Translations under genes and position numbers: made by a program
Shown here: piece after piece, positions 16,848 through 26,340 of the stretch
Layout: each line of letters opens with the position of its first letter
Position numbering within the stretch: the first letter of the stretch is position 1
The notes under the pieces: generated by a model
The model's input: only the letters and a program-made list of their open reading frames with translations
Database searches by the model: none
What the model was told of the DNA's origin: nothing
Assembly: GCA_964482515.1 (NCBI GenBank)
Contig: CAYZXT010000009.1
Span: 16,251 to 80,250 of the forward strand
Length of the DNA: 64,000 nucleotides
Direction of reading: 5' to 3'
Origin: an uncultured Elusimicrobia bacterium
GTDB taxonomy: Bacteria; Elusimicrobiota; Elusimicrobia; FEN-1173

Positions 16848-17942
16848 GTGAACATTATGCCGCGTCAGAAAAAATCCCATCCAATAGTGAAACAAGCTGC
16901 TTCATCATTTCCGATGCCCGTTGATTTGTTGTCGGACATTCGAGGGTTTATTGAGACAACCCGTTCCCGGACGGCGCAGGCCGTCAATGCCGCATTGGTC
17001 ATGCTCTATTGGCGCATCGGGCGGCGTATCCAAGACGATGTTCTTAAAAACAAGCGGGCCGGTTATGGGGAAGAGATTGTGCAGACACTGTCGACACAAT
17101 TGGTCCCTGAATTCGGGGAGGGATTTGGCAAGCGGGTTCTTTTTCGGATGATTCGGTTCGCCGAGGCTTTCCCGGACGAACAGATTGTGTCGACGCTGTC
17201 GACACAATTGGGATGGTCTCATTTTGTGGAAATCATTCCCTTGGACGATCCGCTCAAGCGGAATTTCTACGCCGAGATGTGTCGGCTGGAGGGCTGGAGC
17301 GTGCGGAAGTTGCGGGAGAAAATCAGCGGGATGCTTTTTGAGCGGACGGCCCTTTCTAAGAAACCCGCCAAACTCGCTGAGTTGGAGCTGAAGAAGCTTC
17401 GCGAAGAGGACAAGCTCACGCCGGACCTGGTTTTCCGGGACCCTTATTTCCTGGATTTTCTCGGTCTTAAAGGTGTGTATCTGGAAAAGGATTTGGAAGC
17501 CGCGATCTTGCGGGAGATGGAGACGTTCATCCTGGAGTTGGGGGCCGGTTTTTCCTTCGTCTCTCGGCAAAAACGCATCCAGATCGGCGGAGAGGATTTT
17601 TATTTGGACCTTTTGTTCTATCACCGTAAACTGCGCCGCCTCGTCGCCGTGGAATTGAAATTGGGGAAGTTTAAACCCCAGTTCAAAGGCCAGATGGAGC
17701 TTTACCTTCGCTGGCTGGACAAGCACGAACGGCAGTCCGGCGAAGAAGCGCCGCTCGGACTCATCCTTTGCGCGGACAAGTCCGACGAACAGGTGGAGTT
17801 GTTGCAACTTGAAAAGAGCGGCATTCGCGTTGCTCAATATATGACTGCCTTGCCGTCTCGAAAGGTATTGGAAAATAAACTCCACCAAGCCATCCGCCAT
17901 GCGCGGGAACGCTTGGAAACCATAAAAGAATCCGGCGATTAG
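16848..17942 (+). CDS. yhcG: YhcG-family nuclease (DUF1016 N-terminal domain plus PD-(D/E)xK restriction-endonuclease-like domain)
   Basis: YWRIGRRIQDD...GYGEEIVQTLSTQL...FG.GF...LF.M..F...F...LSWSH...L and a C-terminal FLDFLGL...GAGFSFVSRQKRIQIGGEDFYLDLLFYHRKLRRLVAVELKLGKF (D-E-K core). Confidence 0.75.
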   Translation: MNIMPRQKKSHPIVKQAASSFPMPVDLLSDIRGFIETTRSRTAQAVNAALVMLYWRIGRRIQDDVLKNKRAGYGEEIVQTLSTQLVPEFGEGFGKRVLFRMIRFAEAFPDEQIVSTLSTQLGWSHFVEIIPLDDPLKRNFYAEMCRLEGWSVRKLREKISGMLFERTALSKKPAKLAELELKKLREEDKLTPDLVFRDPYFLDFLGLKGVYLEKDLEAAILREMETFILELGAGFSFVSRQKRIQIGGEDFYLDLLFYHRKLRRLVAVELKLGKFKPQFKGQMELYLRWLDKHERQSGEEAPLGLILCADKSDEQVELLQLEKSGIRVAQYMTALPSRKVLENKLHQAIRHARERLETIKESGD

Positions 17943-19190: not shown

Positions 19191-21977
19191 TTGCCTTTAA
19201 GTTGGAATGAGATTCGTCATCGAGCTATTGGATTTTCACGCGAATGGGCAACGGCTGTGCGTGAAAGATCGGAATCCCAAACTTTTTGGAATGAATTTTT
19301 CCTGGTCTTTGGCTTCCCGCGGAAGAAAGTCGCCCTCTTTGAGGAACCAGTAAAGAAGTTGTCTGGGGAATATGGGTATATCGATCTCATCTGGCCGGGA
19401 ACGTTGTTGGTTGAACATAAGAGTTTCGGTCAAGACTTAAGCAAGGCTGAGTCTCAAGCTTTCCGCTATGCCAGGAGTTTGAACCAAGAGGATTCTCCCC
19501 GCTACATCATCGTTTCGGATTTCGCCCGCATCTCTCTCCACGATTTGGAAGAGGACAAAAGTATTACCTTTCCACTGACTGACTTTCATAAACACATCCA
19601 CGACTTCGCATTTATGTCCGGGTATCAGCAGCATACCTTTCAAGATCAAGATCCTATCAATATCGAAGCCGTCGAAATCATGGGTAAACTCCATGATGTT
19701 CTTGGGGACGGTGGCTACAGCGGCCATAAACTGGAGCGGTTTCTAGTCCGCATTCTTTTTTGCCTCTTCGCAGAGGATACGGGTATTTTCGAACGTGAGG
19801 AATTTCACTTCTTTATACGGAACAGCACCTCCGAGGATGGCTCAGATTTAGGGAACCATCTTGCCCGACTGTTTGACGTCCTAAACACACCAAAAGAAAA
19901 ACGCCAAAAGAACCTCGATGAATCCCTTGCAGATTTACCTTATGTAAATGGGGAACTGTTCGCGGAGAACCTTGGTTTCGCGGACTTCAATAGCGATATG
20001 CGCAATGCGCTTTTGGCCTGCACGCGGTTTGATTGGTCCAAGATATCTCCAGCCATCTTCGGCTCTCTATTCCAAGCGGTAATGGAACCGAAAGAGCGCC
20101 GCCAAATCGGAGCACACTATACCAGCGAGAGGGATATATTGAAAGTTGTTCGGAGTCTATTTCTTGATGATCTCCGCGTAGAATTTGAGGGTATCAAGAG
20201 ATCCACTGGTCAAAGTCGTAAATCTGGATTGAAACGCTTCCATGAAAAAATCTGCGCTTTACGTTTTCTTGATCCGGCCTGTGGTTGCGGTAATTTTCTT
20301 GTTATTACCTACCGTGAACTCCGTGAATTGGAATTGGAAACATTACGGGAGTTGCATCTTACAGGCACCGGTGAGGCAAAAGGATTCCAGCAGGAATTAA
20401 CGCTTGAGGAAGTAAACAGACTATCACTTGTTGATGTGGACCAACTATACGGCATTGAATTGAAGGAATGGCCCGTAAGAATCGCCGAAGTGGCTCTTTG
20501 GTTAATGGATCATCAAATGAACATCAAGGTTTCCGAGACCTTCGGCCAATTGTATCAAAGGCTTCCTCTGAAGAAACGTCCCAACATCGTGCAAGGTAAC
20601 GCTTTACGAATGGATTGGAAAGAAGTCATTCCCCCAGAGAAATGCAGTTACATCCTTGGGAACCCGCCATTTGTGGGGGCCATGTATATGGAGCCAGAGC
20701 AACGGCACGATATGCTGCTTGCAGCGAATAATTTAAATGGTGTTGGTGTTTTGGATTATGTTTCGGCATGGTATTTTGTCGCTTCGGGCTATGTAACGGG
20801 GACAAAAATAAGAGTTGGTTTTGTTTCAACCAACTCGATTACACAAGGCGAGCAGGCGGGAATTTTATGGTCTGAACTGTTTAATCGGGGAGTGAAGATT
20901 CATTTTGCACATCGGCCATTCGCCTGGGATAGTGAGGCCAGAGGAAAGGCTCATGTTCACGTTGTGATAATAGGATTTGGTGTTTTCGACATCCCGGCAA
21001 AAATAATATTTGATTATGATGCTAATCCCGGGAAACCAATCTTGTCGCAGGTTCGTAATATTAATCCTTATTTAGTTGAGGGCATGGACATTTGCATTCG
21101 TAATCGAAGTGAGCCGATTTGTAATGTTCCCAAAATGGCTTGGGGAAGCCAGCCTCGGGATGGGGGAAATTTCCTGATGAGTTCCGAGGGAAAAAAGGAT
21201 CTATTACGTAAGGAACCTGCTGCAATAAAATGGATTAGACCATTCATGGGGGCTGAAGAGTTTTTAAATGGCGTAGAACGATGGTGCCTTTGGTTGGTGG
21301 GTATTCAGCCGCAAGAACTTAACAGCCTTGTTGAAGTCAAAAATAGAGTTGAAGGTGTAAAGCAAATGCGTCTTTCTAGTAAAGCGGAAGCGACCCGAAA
21401 AAAAGCGAGCACACCAACATTATTTGCCCAAATTGCACAGCCAAACTCTGATTATCTTCTGGTCCCATTGGTAAGTTCTGAACGCCGTTCAATTATTCCA
21501 TTTGGCTTCATGTCCAAAGAGGTTATTGCCAGCAATCTTTGTTGCATAGTTTCGGATGCTACGCCATATCATTTCGGAATACTCTCATCGTCTATGCATA
21601 TGGCCTGGGTTCGTCAGATTTGTGGTAGGCTCGAATCTCGTTACAGGTATTCAAAGGATATCGTCTACAACAATTACCCTTGGCCGCAAAATCCGACGGA
21701 CAAACAGAAAGTCGCGGTGGAAGAGGCGGCGCAAAACGTCTTGGACGTCCGAAAGGAATATTCAAAATCCACGTTGGCCGATCTTTACGATCCACTGTCC
21801 ATGCCGCCGAAGCTTGTCAAGGCTCACGCGAACTTAGACCGGGTTGTTGACCTTTGCTATCGCAAGGAATCGTTCACCAGCGAACGCCAGCGCGTGGAAT
21901 ATCTTTTCAATTTATATGAGCGATTGACCGAACCGTTGGTTGCTATGTCTAGTCGGAAAAAGCGAACCAAGACTTAG
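19191..21977 (+). CDS. MmeI-family Type IIL (IIG) restriction-modification enzyme, single-chain (endonuclease, N6-adenine methyltransferase and specificity)
   Basis: 928 aa, about MmeI size. N-terminal YIDLIWPGTLLVEHKS (D...ExK nuclease motif, as in MmeI IDLFWKGKLLVEMKS). Methyltransferase motif I FLDPACGCGNFL and motif IV LGNPPFVG. TTG start with a taGGAGGa SD. The region is clearly more AT-rich than its surroundings. Confidence 0.75.
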   Translation: MPLSWNEIRHRAIGFSREWATAVRERSESQTFWNEFFLVFGFPRKKVALFEEPVKKLSGEYGYIDLIWPGTLLVEHKSFGQDLSKAESQAFRYARSLNQEDSPRYIIVSDFARISLHDLEEDKSITFPLTDFHKHIHDFAFMSGYQQHTFQDQDPINIEAVEIMGKLHDVLGDGGYSGHKLERFLVRILFCLFAEDTGIFEREEFHFFIRNSTSEDGSDLGNHLARLFDVLNTPKEKRQKNLDESLADLPYVNGELFAENLGFADFNSDMRNALLACTRFDWSKISPAIFGSLFQAVMEPKERRQIGAHYTSERDILKVVRSLFLDDLRVEFEGIKRSTGQSRKSGLKRFHEKICALRFLDPACGCGNFLVITYRELRELELETLRELHLTGTGEAKGFQQELTLEEVNRLSLVDVDQLYGIELKEWPVRIAEVALWLMDHQMNIKVSETFGQLYQRLPLKKRPNIVQGNALRMDWKEVIPPEKCSYILGNPPFVGAMYMEPEQRHDMLLAANNLNGVGVLDYVSAWYFVASGYVTGTKIRVGFVSTNSITQGEQAGILWSELFNRGVKIHFAHRPFAWDSEARGKAHVHVVIIGFGVFDIPAKIIFDYDANPGKPILSQVRNINPYLVEGMDICIRNRSEPICNVPKMAWGSQPRDGGNFLMSSEGKKDLLRKEPAAIKWIRPFMGAEEFLNGVERWCLWLVGIQPQELNSLVEVKNRVEGVKQMRLSSKAEATRKKASTPTLFAQIAQPNSDYLLVPLVSSERRSIIPFGFMSKEVIASNLCCIVSDATPYHFGILSSSMHMAWVRQICGRLESRYRYSKDIVYNNYPWPQNPTDKQKVAVEEAAQNVLDVRKEYSKSTLADLYDPLSMPPKLVKAHANLDRVVDLCYRKESFTSERQRVEYLFNLYERLTEPLVAMSSRKKRTKT

Positions 21978-22007
21978 ATCAAAAAGGTGTTTTTATGAAA
22001 AAGAAAC

Positions 22008-22036
22008 CGGTACCGGAGTTGACAGATTGACAATCA
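22008..22036. repeat. Copy 2 of the TTGACA-containing element (ccggtaccggagttgacagattgacaatc)
   Basis: Sits immediately after the MmeI-like stop codon. See 1721-1746. Confidence 0.6.
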
Positions 22037-22077
22037 GGTTCAGTACTAGATTTGATTTGTTGAAGGAGCCCCCGCAA

Positions 22078-22212
22078 TGAAAACCAAAAAGCCCCTCTGC
22101 CAAGCCATCAACACGAAAGGGAAGAAGTGCATTGTCCCTGCCGTGCCCGGCAGCAAATTCTCACCTTCCTACAGACAGGTGCCACGGCTAGCGCCGACGG
22201 GTTTCCGACATA
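22078..22212 (+). CDS. Hypothetical 44-aa basic peptide (MKTKKPLCQAINTKGKKCIVPAV...)
   Basis: Short ORF not in the track. It contains a copy of the 21-bp repeat acaggtgccacggctagcgcc also found inside 23199..24242. Coding status is uncertain. Confidence 0.2.
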
Positions 22213-22369
22213 AGAAGAAATAACTGTCCTTTTCTCCCGTTATTCCCAGCCCGTTTCCCTAAAACTTCAGATTAAATCCCGCTAAGCTCCAGATTCTTCC
22301 TCTATGATGAGGTGAGATATGGTTCTTGATGGTCGTTCACATATATGTTAACCTTGAGGAGATGGCGGC

Positions 22370-22792
22370 GTGAGCACTCATTCTGAGAAGCGGAATTGCG
22401 TGCTTTATTCCGGCCGGTTCTATTCGGCCGAATGGTATTACAGGGAGGACGGCGGGATGCCGGCTCTCGAATATTATCGGGAACTCCCTATCCATGATCG
22501 AGTGCGGCTATTACAGATCATTAAGCACCTGTGCGACGCTCCCTACGGGACAATCCTTCCCGTGACGCTTTACAGGATCGAAGATCGGGAAAACAAGATT
22601 TACGCGTTTAAGCCGAGGGACGAGCGATTCTTCAGTTTTACGATGGAGGGCGCAAGGGTCATCGTTACGAACGCTTACCGCAAGCATTCACAACAGATGA
22701 CCAAGGCGGATCTGGAGTCCTTGAAAACAGCTGTTCGCTATCGGAACGATTATTTGAGGCGCCTGAAAGAGGGGACATATTATGAAGGCTAA
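22370..22792 (+). CDS. Gp49-like (HigB/RelE superfamily) type II toxin
   Basis: GTG start with a GAGGAG SD. WYYREDGGMPALEYYRELPIHDRVRLLQIIKHL... and C-terminal ARVIVTNAYRKHSQQMTKADLESLKTAV fit the phage Gp49/HigB-type toxin pattern (W.V.YY...; IVLLH.F.KK.QKTP..EI). Confidence 0.6.
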   Translation: MSTHSEKRNCVLYSGRFYSAEWYYREDGGMPALEYYRELPIHDRVRLLQIIKHLCDAPYGTILPVTLYRIEDRENKIYAFKPRDERFFSFTMEGARVIVTNAYRKHSQQMTKADLESLKTAVRYRNDYLRRLKEGTYYEG

Positions 22793-23132
22793 AAAGAAAA
22801 TCAAAAAGGCAAAGAGCACCTTTGATCGGGAAATGGAAAACCCGGAATTCAGGAATCTTTTCGAGGAATCTTGGCCCGCCTTCCAAGTGGAAGTCCAGCT
22901 GCTGAAAGCCTTGGAAGGCAAGCAATGGTCCTATTCCGACCTCGCGAAGGTATTGCACACGCAGAAGAGCGCCATTTCGCGCGACCTGAAAGGCGGCGGC
23001 ATTCGGTCTGCTTCCATCACGCGGATCGCGAAGATGGCGGAAGCCCTGGGAATGAGATTTATCCCGTTCTGCGTCTCCGAGAAGAAGGCGAGGGAAATTC
23101 TTCCCGCTATCAAGAAACTCCTGGCCGCGTAA
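22782..23132 (+). CDS. HTH (XRE-like) antitoxin partner
   Basis: Overlaps the toxin gene by 11 nt. WSYSDLAKVLHTQKSAISRDLKGGGIRSASITRIAKMAEALGMRF is an HTH motif. Confidence 0.6.
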   Translation: MKAKKKIKKAKSTFDREMENPEFRNLFEESWPAFQVEVQLLKALEGKQWSYSDLAKVLHTQKSAISRDLKGGGIRSASITRIAKMAEALGMRFIPFCVSEKKAREILPAIKKLLAA

Positions 23133-23140
23133 TAGGGATT

Positions 23141-23170
23141 CGTGCCGGAGTTGACACGTTGACAATCGAC
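23141..23170. repeat. Copy 3 of the TTGACA-containing element (cgtgccggagttgacacgttgacaatcgacc)
   Basis: Lies between the antitoxin stop and the DUF1016-SNase start. It could also act as a -35 region. Confidence 0.6.
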
Positions 23171-23198
23171 CAGCCTATTCTTTAAGTACAATACCTCC

Positions 23199-24242
23199 AT
23201 GCCGAAAGAATCCATCCCCTCGGTCGCCCATCCCGCCTACGCCAAGCTCCGTTCCGCCGTCCACAAAACCCTCCTCCTCGGTCAGAAACAAATCGAACAA
23301 GCCAAAGTCCGTACCTACTACGAAACCGGAAAACACATCCAAGAACATATCGCCCGCTACGGTTCGCGCTCCGAGCATTACGGCGCTCAAGTGGTGGAGA
23401 AGCTTTCGGTTGATTTGGGGATTAGCACCCGGGTCTTGCGGCAGTGTGTGCAGTTCGCCCGGAACTTCAAGATTGTGAACGCGCGTTCACAATCTTTGCC
23501 GGCCCAATTGCCTTGGACGCATTACCGTCAACTGATGACCATTCCGGATGAGGACGCGCGGATTTCCCTGATGAAAAGGGCCGAGAAGTCCGAATGGAGC
23601 GAACGCCAGCTGGCGGAGAAGATCCGCCTTGAGGTGCGAGAAGCAAAGTCCCCGTCAACCAACGGCGGGCATAGTTCAATGGTAGAAAAGAAGTATCCCA
23701 AGCTCATTCCCAAGCGCGGCGAGCTTTACACGTACCGCCTCATTGCGCCGGAAGCGGTTGATGGCGAAGCGGGTCTGTGGATTGATTTGGGTTTCCAGGT
23801 GCGGCGCACCTTTCCACAAACAGGTGCCATGGCTAGCGCCAAGGGCGGACAGATCGTGGAATCCAAAAAGACGGGGGAAATCTATTCCGCGGTCCCGTCC
23901 AAGCGGACGGAGGCGGACTTGTTCACCTTCCAGGCGCCGGTGGAGCGGGTGGTGGACGGCGACACGCTGATCGTGAACGTCGACCTGGGGTTCGACACGG
24001 GCGTGCGGCAATACCTGCGGTTGCGCGGCATCAATTGCCCGGAGCTGGACACGCCGGAGGGCAAGCGGGCCAAGGCCTTCGTGGAAAAGGAATTGGGGAA
24101 AGCGCGGCGGATCATCCTGACGAGCTCCCGGTCCGACAAGTACGACCGCTACCTGGCGGACGTGTTTATTGAGTCCACCAACGGCGAACGATATCTGAAC
24201 CAGGCGCTGCTGGACGAAGGCCTCGCGGTCCGGATGGAATAG
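23199..24242 (+). CDS. Fusion nuclease: DUF1016 (YhcG N-terminal) domain plus staphylococcal-nuclease-like (SNase/thermonuclease) domain
   Basis: The N-terminal VRTYYETGKHIQEHI...GAQVVEKLSVDLGIS...LRQCVQFARNF...LPWTHYRQLMTIPDEDAR...WSERQL resembles the YhcG N-domain. The C-terminal VERVVDGDTLIVNVDLGFDTGVRQYLRLRGINCPELDTPEGKRAKAFVEKELGKARRIILTS...DKYDRYLADVFIE...NQALLDEGLA resembles SNase. There is an internal partial duplication: AVDGEAGLWIDLGFQVRRTF resembles VVDGDTLIVNVDLGFDTGVRQY. Confidence 0.7.
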   Translation: MPKESIPSVAHPAYAKLRSAVHKTLLLGQKQIEQAKVRTYYETGKHIQEHIARYGSRSEHYGAQVVEKLSVDLGISTRVLRQCVQFARNFKIVNARSQSLPAQLPWTHYRQLMTIPDEDARISLMKRAEKSEWSERQLAEKIRLEVREAKSPSTNGGHSSMVEKKYPKLIPKRGELYTYRLIAPEAVDGEAGLWIDLGFQVRRTFPQTGAMASAKGGQIVESKKTGEIYSAVPSKRTEADLFTFQAPVERVVDGDTLIVNVDLGFDTGVRQYLRLRGINCPELDTPEGKRAKAFVEKELGKARRIILTSSRSDKYDRYLADVFIESTNGERYLNQALLDEGLAVRME

Positions 24243-24305
24243 CCCTCCCAATCTTCATCCCTCCTTCAGTCGTTCTTCAGACTTAAAAAGTAATCTCTCC
24301 TCCAT
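24243..24305 (+). promoter_or_regulatory. Conserved ORF6N leader, copy B
   Basis: agccctcccaatcttcatccctccttcagtcgttcttcagacttaaaaagtaatctctcctcc, about 80% identical to copy C at 26283-26340. Confidence 0.5.
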
Positions 24306-24337
24306 GAATTGTGCATGATGAATGGGAGGACTAGAGG

Positions 24338-24354
24338 TGGTCGCAAATTGCGAC
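24338..24354. repeat. 17-bp palindrome ggtcgcaa-a-ttgcgacc upstream of ORF6N-2 (the same core as the intragenic palindrome of ORF6N-1)
   Basis: Exact match to 2036-2052. It sits ~35 bp upstream of the probable ORF6N-2 start. Confidence 0.7.
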
Positions 24355-24386
24355 CGCCTTCGACCACTCAAATTCTTGGAGGTTTT

Positions 24387-24914
24387 ATGCGAGCTGTAAT
24401 GAAAACCGAACACATTCAATCGATGATATTCCTGATTCGCGGGCGCAAGGTCATGTTGGACCGTGATTTGGCGGCGCTTTATGGCATTGCCACAAAGGTC
24501 CTTAAGCAGGCTGTTAAGCGGAATCATTTGCGATTCCCGGAGGATTTCATGTTTGAACTGTCTGCGGAAGAGCAGTCAAATTGGAGGTCACAATTTGTGA
24601 CCTCCAATTCTTCCCTGAATAAGGGACTCCGGTGGCGTTCAATGGCATTCACTGAGTATGGTGTGGCCATGCTTTCCGGCGTTCTGAAAAGTGAAAGGGC
24701 CGTTCAGGTTAATATCGCCATCGTTCGGGCATTTATCGACATGCGGCGGATGATTTCGGAAACACGAGGGTTGGCGGAGAAATTGGCGGAGCATGAGAAA
24801 AAGATCGGGGGACTGGCGAACGATGTCCGGCATATGTTCGACCTGCTACAGCCGTTGCTGGATGGACCCACTAAAAAACCCGGGAAGATCGGGTTCGGAA
24901 TGCGACAGATTTAG
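24387..24914 (+). CDS. ORF6N-domain protein (full length)
   Basis: MKTEHIQSMIFLIRGRKVMLDRDLAALYGIATKVLKQAVKRNHLRFPEDFMFELSAEEQSNWRSQFVTSNSS...[35 protein letters not shown]. The track ORF starts at 24309; the start was chosen at the ATG four nt after GGAGG. Confidence 0.7.
   Translation: MRAVMKTEHIQSMIFLIRGRKVMLDRDLAALYGIATKVLKQAVKRNHLRFPEDFMFELSAEEQSNWRSQFVTSNSSLNKGLRWRSMAFTEYGVAMLSGVLKSERAVQVNIAIVRAFIDMRRMISETRGLAEKLAEHEKKIGGLANDVRHMFDLLQPLLDGPTKKPGKIGFGMRQI
24579..24609. repeat. 31-bp perfect palindrome inside ORF6N-2 (aattggaggtcacaa-t-ttgtgacctccaatt)
   Basis: 15-bp arms. It sits at the position homologous to the ORF6N-1 palindrome, encoding NWRSQFVTSNS. The core ggtcAcaa/ttgTgacc differs from the ggtcGcaa/ttgCgacc of ORF6N-1 by a compensatory base-pair change. 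Confidence 0.8.
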
Positions 24915-25570
24915 CGGGCGATGAGGGCGTTGTACGCCCGGATGGCGGCGTAGGCGTCGTTGGCGGCGTAGAGGAGTTGCAGTTCGCTGAGGATCGGGAG
25001 CCCCCAGTTGGACGTGCCCTGCTTTTTGGATTTGAGGAAGCGTTGTTTGAAGAGCAGCGCGATGCCCACCTTGGAGCCCACGCCGCGGCCGAAGCCCTTT
25101 TCGGCGAAGAGCGTTTCGAGGTCCACCACGCCGTGGGGCTCGACGCGCAGTTTCTTGCGGATGCGCGACAGGTCGTCCCCCAGGCCGAAACCCACTTTTT
25201 TGAGGCTCTTAAAAGAGATGAGTTCGGCGGCGGCCTGGCGGCATTCCGGCTGGTTCAGCATGAACACGTAGCCGCGCGTGGCGGTGGCGAACTGGACGAC
25301 GTGGGGGCCGGTGGAGACCTGTCCTTTATGGAAGGTGGGTTTGGATTCGGTGTCGAAGCCCACCACGCTTTCGGCCGCGAGCTCCTTGAACGCCCGCTGC
25401 GCGAGGGCCGGCGTGTTCACCGCGAGGATGTCCCCGCGGCGCAGGGCGTGGAACGGCGGAAGGGCCGCCATTTCCTCGCGCGTGGGCCAGTGGGCCGGGC
25501 GCTGGCGGTTCGGGACGCGCGGCGGCGCGGAGGGTTTGAACAGTTTTTTGAGCCAGCGGCGGATGACCAA
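24911..25570 (-). CDS. 3'-5' exonuclease domain protein (RNase D / WRN-exo-like, DEDDy family)
   Basis: VVGFDTESKPTF...VVQFATATRGYVFML...KKVGFGLGDDLSRI...VVDLETL...SNWGLPILSELQLLYAANDAYAA carries the Exo I-III motifs. Confidence 0.65.
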   Translation of the reverse strand: MVIRRWLKKLFKPSAPPRVPNRQRPAHWPTREEMAALPPFHALRRGDILAVNTPALAQRAFKELAAESVVGFDTESKPTFHKGQVSTGPHVVQFATATRGYVFMLNQPECRQAAAELISFKSLKKVGFGLGDDLSRIRKKLRVEPHGVVDLETLFAEKGFGRGVGSKVGIALLFKQRFLKSKKQGTSNWGLPILSELQLLYAANDAYAAIRAYNALIAR

Positions 25571-25576
25571 GGGGGA

Positions 25577-26212
25577 TTACGGTTTCCGGAACAGCGAGGC
25601 GTCCACCGGGCCGGGGGTGAACTCGACGGCTTCCTCGGTCCGCCGGAAGACGGTGGTGTTGGCCTGGGAGGAGTGCAAAACGATTTCGGCCTTCAGGACC
25701 GCGCCCGTCTCGGCGTCCACCCAGGCGTCGACGCTGCGCACGGAGTCCGGCAATTTCACCTTGGCGTGGTAGCGCCGGGCCTTGCGGCCCGCCACTGTTT
25801 CGGTCTCGCCCGCCTCGCCGGTGTAGGCCTTCCGCCAGAAGCGGATCTCGTGGAGCTCCGCCTCCGTGGGTTTGTGGGAATACTCGGAGGGCTCCGTGGC
25901 GTGCGCGCCGTCGGGCGAAGGGGCGTAGACGATCTTTTCGAACAGGGTCTCGCCGTCGAAGAACCGCGTCACCTTGTATTCGGCGGGGGGCGCCATGAAG
26001 CGGTCCTCCCGCGCGTCGGCCTCGGTGCGGAAGCGCTTCCCGTCGGTGTGGATCCTGACGCGCTCCGCGGTTTTCGTGCCGGCCGTTTCGTTCTCCCGGA
26101 TGACCGTCCAGGTGCCGCTGAAGGGCGAGTCCTGGACGCGGCTGGGCGAGCATTTCTTGAGCAGGAAAGCGAAGGCGGCGACGGCGAGGACGGCCAGGAG
26201 CAGGTTCTTCAT
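25577..26212 (-). CDS. Secreted/lipoprotein hypothetical protein
   Basis: Signal MKNLLLAVLAVAAFAFLLKKCS. No recognisable catalytic motif. Confidence 0.4.
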   Translation of the reverse strand: MKNLLLAVLAVAAFAFLLKKCSPSRVQDSPFSGTWTVIRENETAGTKTAERVRIHTDGKRFRTEADAREDRFMAPPAEYKVTRFFDGETLFEKIVYAPSPDGAHATEPSEYSHKPTEAELHEIRFWRKAYTGEAGETETVAGRKARRYHAKVKLPDSVRSVDAWVDAETGAVLKAEIVLHSSQANTTVFRRTEEAVEFTPGPVDASLFRKP

Positions 26213-26282: not shown

Positions 26283-26340
26283 CCTCCCAATCTTCATCCT
26301 CCCTCCCGCGGTTCTTCAGAATCAAAAAGTAACCTTTCCT
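26283..26340 (+). promoter_or_regulatory. Conserved ORF6N leader, copy C
   Basis: cttcctcccaatcttcatcctccctcccgcggttcttcagaatcaaaaagtaacctttcctgcgg. Confidence 0.5.

Follow-up and report, generated by a model that had tools for sequence, protein, structure and literature searches.

The DUF1016_N-SNase gene lies at positions 23199..24242 on the + strand of the window, the 64,000-nucleotide stretch of DNA analysed in this study, and encodes a protein of 347 amino acids according to the open reading frame listing, with the exact protein already on record. It stands alone within a defence islet of low GC content, where it is preceded by an MmeI-family Type IIG restriction-modification enzyme (19191..21977, + strand, GC 45.7%) and a putative toxin-antitoxin pair. 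The former contains all five MmeI Pfam domains and is recognized by PADLOC as REase_MTase_IIG (E = 0). The latter is a HigB/Gp49-like and HTH pair (22370..23132, + strand) whose ORFs overlap by 11 nt; its Gp49 match in Pfam is weak (E 0.0026, below the cut-off), and the partner carries HTH_37 and HTH_3. As the preliminary description of this DNA had stated, a canonical YhcG with DUF1016_N and YhcG_C domains is encoded at 16848, and the nuclease gene is followed by an ORF6N gene and a convergent DNA_pol_A_exo1 gene, both confirmed by Pfam. The ORF6N gene starts at 24387 (or 24309) and ends at 24914 on the + strand (Pfam ORF6N, 9.4e-29; PADLOC PDC-S05, 6.9e-52), and the exonuclease gene, coding for a DEDDy 3'-5' exonuclease annotated by JGI as RNase D-like, occupies 24911..25570 on the - strand.

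The protein is composed of four parts, and its AlphaFold2 model has a pLDDT of 90.1. The first part is the DUF1016_N domain (23283..23633, + strand; aa 29-145), an all-helical, putative DNA-binding module common to YhcG, which Pfam detects with an E value of 1.9e-20 and a score of 73.8 bits against a cut-off of 32.8. It appears to resemble the DNA-binding domains of ParB, Spo0J and KorB. It is followed by a flexible linker (23640..23723, + strand; aa 148-175) with a pLDDT of 50-71 and no secondary structure, which has the lowest conservation of all segments in the family (mean pairwise identity 20%). According to the model, it is in this disordered linker that the N-domain and the nuclease part are truly joined. 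Next comes a small beta sub-domain (23724..23924, + strand; aa 176-242) that forms five strands in the model and contains the family-invariant residues G174, D196, G198 and F199. The last part is the SNase-fold nuclease domain (23925..24239, + strand; aa 243-347), which stops just past the second helix and is matched by Pfam at aa 273-344 (E 1.8e-9).

The assignment of this last domain agrees with the preliminary description, which had proposed that the YhcG-type N-domain is followed here by a nuclease of SNase fold where YhcG has its PD-(D/E)xK domain, and had named the fold and the catalytic Arg, Glu and Asp as its own test. The model has the OB-fold five-strand barrel with flanking helices, a profile search against PDB sequences gave an SNase match at 1.3e-9, and all three catalytic residue types are present. 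The catalytic codons on the + strand are those of D255 (23961-23963), R274 (24018-24020), N279 (24033-24035), E282 (24042-24044) and R317 (24147-24149). R274, R317 and D255, which correspond to R35, R87 and D21 of staphylococcal nuclease, are invariant in 67/67 homologues, and E282 (E43) is kept in 66 of the 67; the equivalent of Y85 is also retained, leaving the catalytic set D21, R35, E43, R87 and Y85 intact. The second metal-ligand position, D40, is occupied by Asn279 here, by Asp in 52 and by Asn in 15 of the 67 homologues (22%), and this substitution may lower the activity of the copy in the window. Helix 3 and the residues Y113/Y115 are absent: the Pfam match ends at profile position 75 of 107, and 64/67 homologues end 3-6 residues past a 'GLA' motif.

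What does not hold in that proposal is the novelty of the fusion. A homologue search gave 1053 matches, and the best 120 of these extend over the full length of the protein and carry both of its Pfam domains, at 40-61% identity. The architecture occurs at no fewer than 419 loci in GTDB species-representative genomes, mainly of Omnitrophota, and has already been auto-annotated with both Pfam domains. With more than 1000 full-length homologues of the protein, the DUF1016_N-SNase genes form, as judged from their sequences, a large family of solitary cytoplasmic nucleases that is conserved and unstudied, nuclease activity being predicted. The cytoplasmic location is likewise predicted, from the absence of a signal peptide, which sets the protein apart from staphylococcal nuclease. 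Neither the SNase fusion nor the palindrome considered below was described in the literature that we searched on DUF1016, YhcG, PDC-S02, ORF6N with palindrome, and intragenic palindromes. The full-length architecture was absent from phage records (0/206), and a single-protein query of viral contigs found no YhcG relatives.

The family-wide distribution also bears on how the fusion was thought to have arisen. The preliminary description had placed an internal duplication at the domain junction, together with a 21-bp repeat at which recombination would have joined the domains. The peptide likeness between aa 186-205 and aa 251-272 is indeed there, away from the junction, which lies in the linker at aa 148-175. 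Both 'DLGF' motifs are invariant across the 67 homologues, and hhalign of the beta sub-domain against the SNase part, using family sub-alignments, gave a probability of 80% (E 1.4e-5). The beta sub-domain repeats the first strands of the SNase barrel in an old and degenerate form, and the internal duplication, for which the profile comparison offers modest support, is apparently an ancient feature of the whole family.

The nucleotide repeat is also real, at coordinates 1-3 nt from those first given: the copies at 22175-22195 and 23820-23840 are identical at 20/21 positions, with 0 matches in 100 shuffles, and the likeness extends to 39 nt at 85% (22162-22200 and 23807-23845). However, the copy within the gene, which we call R-box copy 1 (23807..23845, + strand), contains the 21-mer and codes for aa 203-216, which belong to a loop in the beta sub-domain about 30 residues beyond the domain junction. 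R-box copy 2 (22162..22200, + strand; 85% identical) overlaps the 3' end of a 48-aa micro-ORF in another reading frame; the zinc-ribbon motif of this micro-ORF was not found near other family genes, and the R-box had no match in metagenome contigs. Since a nucleotide repeat that is still 85-88% identical cannot predate a fusion shared by proteins with an identity of only 40%, recombination at the repeat is rejected as the origin of the fusion.

A second collinear repeat was overlooked in the preliminary description. The conserved upstream P-box ATTCGTGCCGGAGTTGACACGTTGACAATC (23138..23167, + strand) recurs at 22006-22035 and at 1720-1749, and had no match in viral contigs. We also considered whether the region 22010-22260 represents the decayed remains of a paralogue and rejected this, as blastn (word size 7) and a six-frame search with the family HMM match the two short boxes only. 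One nucleotide past the nuclease stop codon begins a 58-nt sequence, the leader L of the ORF6N unit (24244..24301, + strand), with further copies at 1780-1837 and 26283-26340. The gap from P-box to leader L is 30 nt at the first ORF6N unit (ORF6N-1) and 1076 nt at the second (ORF6N-2), the latter being exactly the nuclease ORF. The nuclease gene would thus have entered here as a cassette of one gene, with the promoter box of the ORF6N unit on one side and its leader on the other. At its 5' side, a TACAAT -10-like hexamer, read from the sequence (23187..23192, + strand), precedes the ATG by 6 nt and a Shine-Dalgarno sequence is missing, which suggests a leaderless transcript. A strong -10 box lies 4-10 nt ahead of the start in 10/61 family genes, compared with 22/378 control genes. 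A search for sigma-70 promoter and terminator consensus at the P-box and in the nuclease-ORF6N gap gave nothing exceeding shuffles.

Such a precise insertion is what would be expected of a selfish or mobile nuclease gene that spreads by homing-like or site-specific recombination, with the palindrome described below as its cleavage, cruciform or crossover site and not an operator. Some other loci of the family give the same impression, as the genes there are wedged with hardly any extra DNA between housekeeping genes, e.g., pdxA|ksgA, lysS/lolC, and ligA|xerD, and there are several copies per genome. In addition, Holliday-junction resolvases are relatives of the YhcG nuclease domain (PMC1189080), and two enterobacterial plasmids carry a YhcG gene that shares part of its sequence with a site-specific integrase gene by overlap. 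Against this reading, near-identical copies are absent both within and between genomes: the best non-self match to the window protein has 61% identity, and paralogues share 29-77%. No conserved flank motifs or terminal repeats were found around 59 family genes, and no recombinase is regularly adjacent. We consider a mobile gene of this kind unlikely.

The surroundings of the gene do not amount to a conserved module either. The preliminary description had grouped the nuclease with the ORF6N gene and the exonuclease in a three-gene system, whereas the exonuclease accompanies 0/80 homologues, and an ORF6N gene lies within 6 kb in 7/80, in mixed orientation. The exonuclease gene has a host-like composition (GC 65.8%, GC3 87%) that differs from the islet (GC 50-59%), and its product has more than 8000 close homologues; it is a host core gene outside the system. 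ORF6N is the commonest single immediate neighbour of family members, yet it adjoins in about 6% of loci and is often convergent, so it is a neighbour and not an obligate partner. No recurrent neighbour emerged, and no ParA was found among the neighbours. The commonest flanking families are ORF6N, Bro-N, Fic, DUF4143 ATPase, Cas3, AbiEii and nucleotidyltransferase. Since housekeeping genes make up about half of those at the flanks in other genomes, the designation 'defence island' is not universal, and most family members have no adjoining restriction system. The repeat, real and non-random, and the frequency of ORF6N as a neighbour are what speaks for a recent fusion at the repeat within a three-gene module; the family-wide conservation of the architecture and the neighbourhood counts refute that model, and we believe it can hardly be right. 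The protein should be annotated as a 'DUF1016_N-SNase family nuclease', neither a novel fusion nor part of a three-gene system.

A new feature of the gene is a perfect 28-bp palindrome, AAGATTGTGAACGC|GCGTTCACAATCTT, within the part of its coding sequence that specifies the N-domain (23469..23496; aa 91-100). It encodes a low-confidence loop just before the invariant W106-x-H108. A palindrome of different sequence is found at the same place in 53/64 family genes (score of at least 7) and in 9-10 of 14 canonical YhcG genes, the latter from Proteobacteria, Bacteroidota, Bacillota and Cyanobacteriota. Among 77 genes, 39 perfect palindromes fall at one profile position, compared with 5 elsewhere in 84 kb. 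The covariation of the arms is 0.823, against 0.186 in shuffles (0/500), with 92% of the cells paired versus 57% and 215 double-sided changes versus 67. We propose a conserved cis palindrome of DUF1016_N genes, at least 20 bp long, with co-varying arms and with its centre at a constant spacing on the 5' side of the W-x-H codons; the palindrome of the window gene is of this kind. The ORF6N gene of the window has a perfect palindrome of its own (24579-24609), in addition to an operator-like palindrome nearby (24335-24359), and an internal palindrome is present at the same spot in 72/80 genes of the ORF6N family.

One alternative is that the palindrome acts as a hairpin in the mRNA that controls the translation or stability of a message for a toxic nuclease. 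The palindrome is transcribed and would give a 12-14-bp stem in the middle of the ORF. However, G:U pairs are nearly absent (6/583 inner cells), and sense-strand A:C mismatches outnumber G:T both in the DUF1016_N-SNase family (12 vs 4) and in ORF6N genes (53 vs 28). Moreover, the centres are exclusively even-sized in the SNase-fusion family (0/2/4) and exclusively odd-sized in YhcG (1/3) and ORF6N, and the centre is itself symmetric, for which a hairpin has no need. The scarcity of G:U cells and the even-sized loops indicate a dyad symmetry of DNA. Rfam had no family match in 21900-25700. An mRNA hairpin is consequently quite improbable.

It is also conceivable that the palindrome has no function of its own, its symmetry being kept up by template-switch 'quasi-palindrome correction' during replication, and that the protein is simply one of the nucleases that process nucleic acids in these phyla. 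In quasi-palindrome mutagenesis, template switching copies changes from arm to arm and would mimic covariation. The encoded loop has little order and tolerates change, and a second copy of the site was not found nearby. On the other hand, the position has been held over at least six phyla and in two architectures, and independently in ORF6N. The codons of conserved residues are bent to the symmetry, as in P-I (CCA ATT) and Q/E-L (CAA/GAA TTG); an identical palindrome 26-mer has been kept between proteins that are just 50% identical, and pairing drops sharply past position 13 from the dyad. We thus regard a functionless palindrome as improbable.

In searches for further copies of the palindrome half-site of each gene, the flanks gave 7 matches versus about 2.5 expected, and in the 170 nt upstream the mean best match was 8.27 versus 8.28 in controls; neither region is enriched, and this speaks against a cognate site.

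Comparisons among family members show that the palindrome is exchanged together with part of the protein. In the recombination mosaics L007/L010, L065/L069, L027/L037 and P0050/P0060, the palindrome and its neighbouring helices were swapped as one (in L007/L010 as a block of roughly 137 nt), and of all protein segments only the two next to the palindrome correlate with its identity (r 0.34 and 0.29). A preferential coupling to the HTH-like helices on the upstream side, over those downstream, was considered and rejected; as both adjacent segments correlate with the palindrome, function and linkage cannot be separated. Linkage alone could account for the co-inheritance of palindrome and neighbouring segments.

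Two of these mosaics, L007/L010 and P0050/P0060, have breakpoints at the edge of the palindrome, as a recombination site of a selfish gene would. The same is true of the symmetry, which runs through the centre, and of the hairpin energies of -11 to -15 kcal/mol (-13 kcal/mol, z -4.8, for the window palindrome as a DNA hairpin). Symmetry through the centre exceeds what an operator typically needs and also fits a cruciform or recombination site. Paralogues of one genome, however, have different palindromes and could not recombine together.

Taken as a whole, the explanation that we favour, and to which we give about an even chance, is that of a solitary four-part nuclease family that serves as an island effector, with the palindrome as the cognate site of its N-domain. 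The N-domain, which appears to resemble helix-turn-helix domains of the ParB/KorB type, would supply nucleic-acid recognition, and the SNase domain is predicted to cut by a Ca2+-type metal mechanism. The protein would be a functional analogue of YhcG with the cutting module swapped, acting alone as an island-borne effector of the defence or abortive-infection type, as proposed for YhcG (PADLOC candidate PDC-S02). Against this, one PDC-S02 (YhcG-type) representative assayed in E. coli B gave no protection from T4, T5 or T7 (bioRxiv 10.1101/2024.09.26.614923). From the pattern of symmetry and covariation we infer that the palindrome is the cognate DNA site of the gene's own product, most likely bound by a putative dimer of the N-domain. 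With the site inside the gene, protein and site would never be separated, and the palindrome may serve to keep a potentially toxic nuclease repressed or tethered. More tentatively, it is possible that DUF1016_N genes (YhcG and SNase fusions) and, independently, ORF6N genes carry a candidate cognate site within the coding sequence of the DNA-binding domain, a perfect palindrome of 26-31 bp that differs between paralogues and is exchanged with the recognition helices as a specificity cassette.

Among the single genes of defence islands and restriction-modification operons that lack an explanation, those of the YhcG/DUF1016 and ORF6N/RhuM types rank with the commonest. The occurrence of the N-domain on two unrelated nuclease folds points to a targeting or sensing module with the nuclease as an interchangeable effector. 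What is new here is the position-conserved, co-varying intragenic palindromes of DUF1016_N and ORF6N genes. If the proposed role is correct, each solitary island gene encodes both a DNA-binding effector and the address that it recognizes. Such a cassette could serve self-repression, keep a toxic nuclease tethered, or play a part in the competition of mobile elements carrying the same cassette; it would account for the restraint of solitary nucleases that are potentially lethal, and it would be a way of keeping a protein and its DNA site genetically inseparable.

Among known systems, YhcG (PF17761 + PF06250; COG4804; PDC-S02) shares with the protein the DUF1016_N domain (29% identical to the YhcG of the window), the lifestyle of a solitary gene in islands or restriction loci, and the position-conserved palindrome just ahead of the W-x-H motif. 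The difference lies in the PD-(D/E)xK YhcG_C domain, which is replaced here by the beta sub-domain and SNase. As Pfam found no PF06250 in the 347-aa protein and the 22 matching PDC-S02 models cover the N-domain only, with alignments ending at about aa 155, the protein is not a member of the YhcG family but a relative through the N-domain alone. With staphylococcal nuclease/thermonuclease (PF00565) it has in common the OB-fold barrel and helices at 28-32% identity, and with the short SNase endonucleases of Staphylococcus, Ralstonia and Arthrobacter phages (PHROG 452) about 40% identity over aa 240-343. In contrast to SNase, it lacks helix 3 and Y113/Y115, has Asn for D40, and bears a 240-residue N-terminal extension. 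A match to Tudor-SN/extended Tudor is explained by the SN-like fold alone, as the aromatic cage of Tudor and any sequence relation are absent; Tudor-SN proteins are, moreover, eukaryotic.

ParB/Spo0J and KorB are palindrome-binding proteins with a helix-turn-helix, and the first parS of Bacillus subtilis lies within the spo0J gene. Unlike ParB/Spo0J-parS and KorB-OB, the window protein has neither the N-terminal CTPase domain of ParB (by Pfam) nor a ParA partner, and the palindrome of DUF1016_N genes varies from gene to gene, whereas parS is conserved. PrrC, an effector that is a guest in the EcoprrI type I operon, exemplifies the restriction-locus guests, which resemble the present gene in being solitary nucleases beside or inside R-M loci, here after the MmeI-type enzyme. 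They differ in that most DUF1016_N-SNase genes are not beside a restriction system. DUF1016 and RhuM genes are themselves known as guests between the hsd genes of restriction loci (PMC9881135), and at one of our loci (L083) a YhcG gene lies between hsdM and hsdS.

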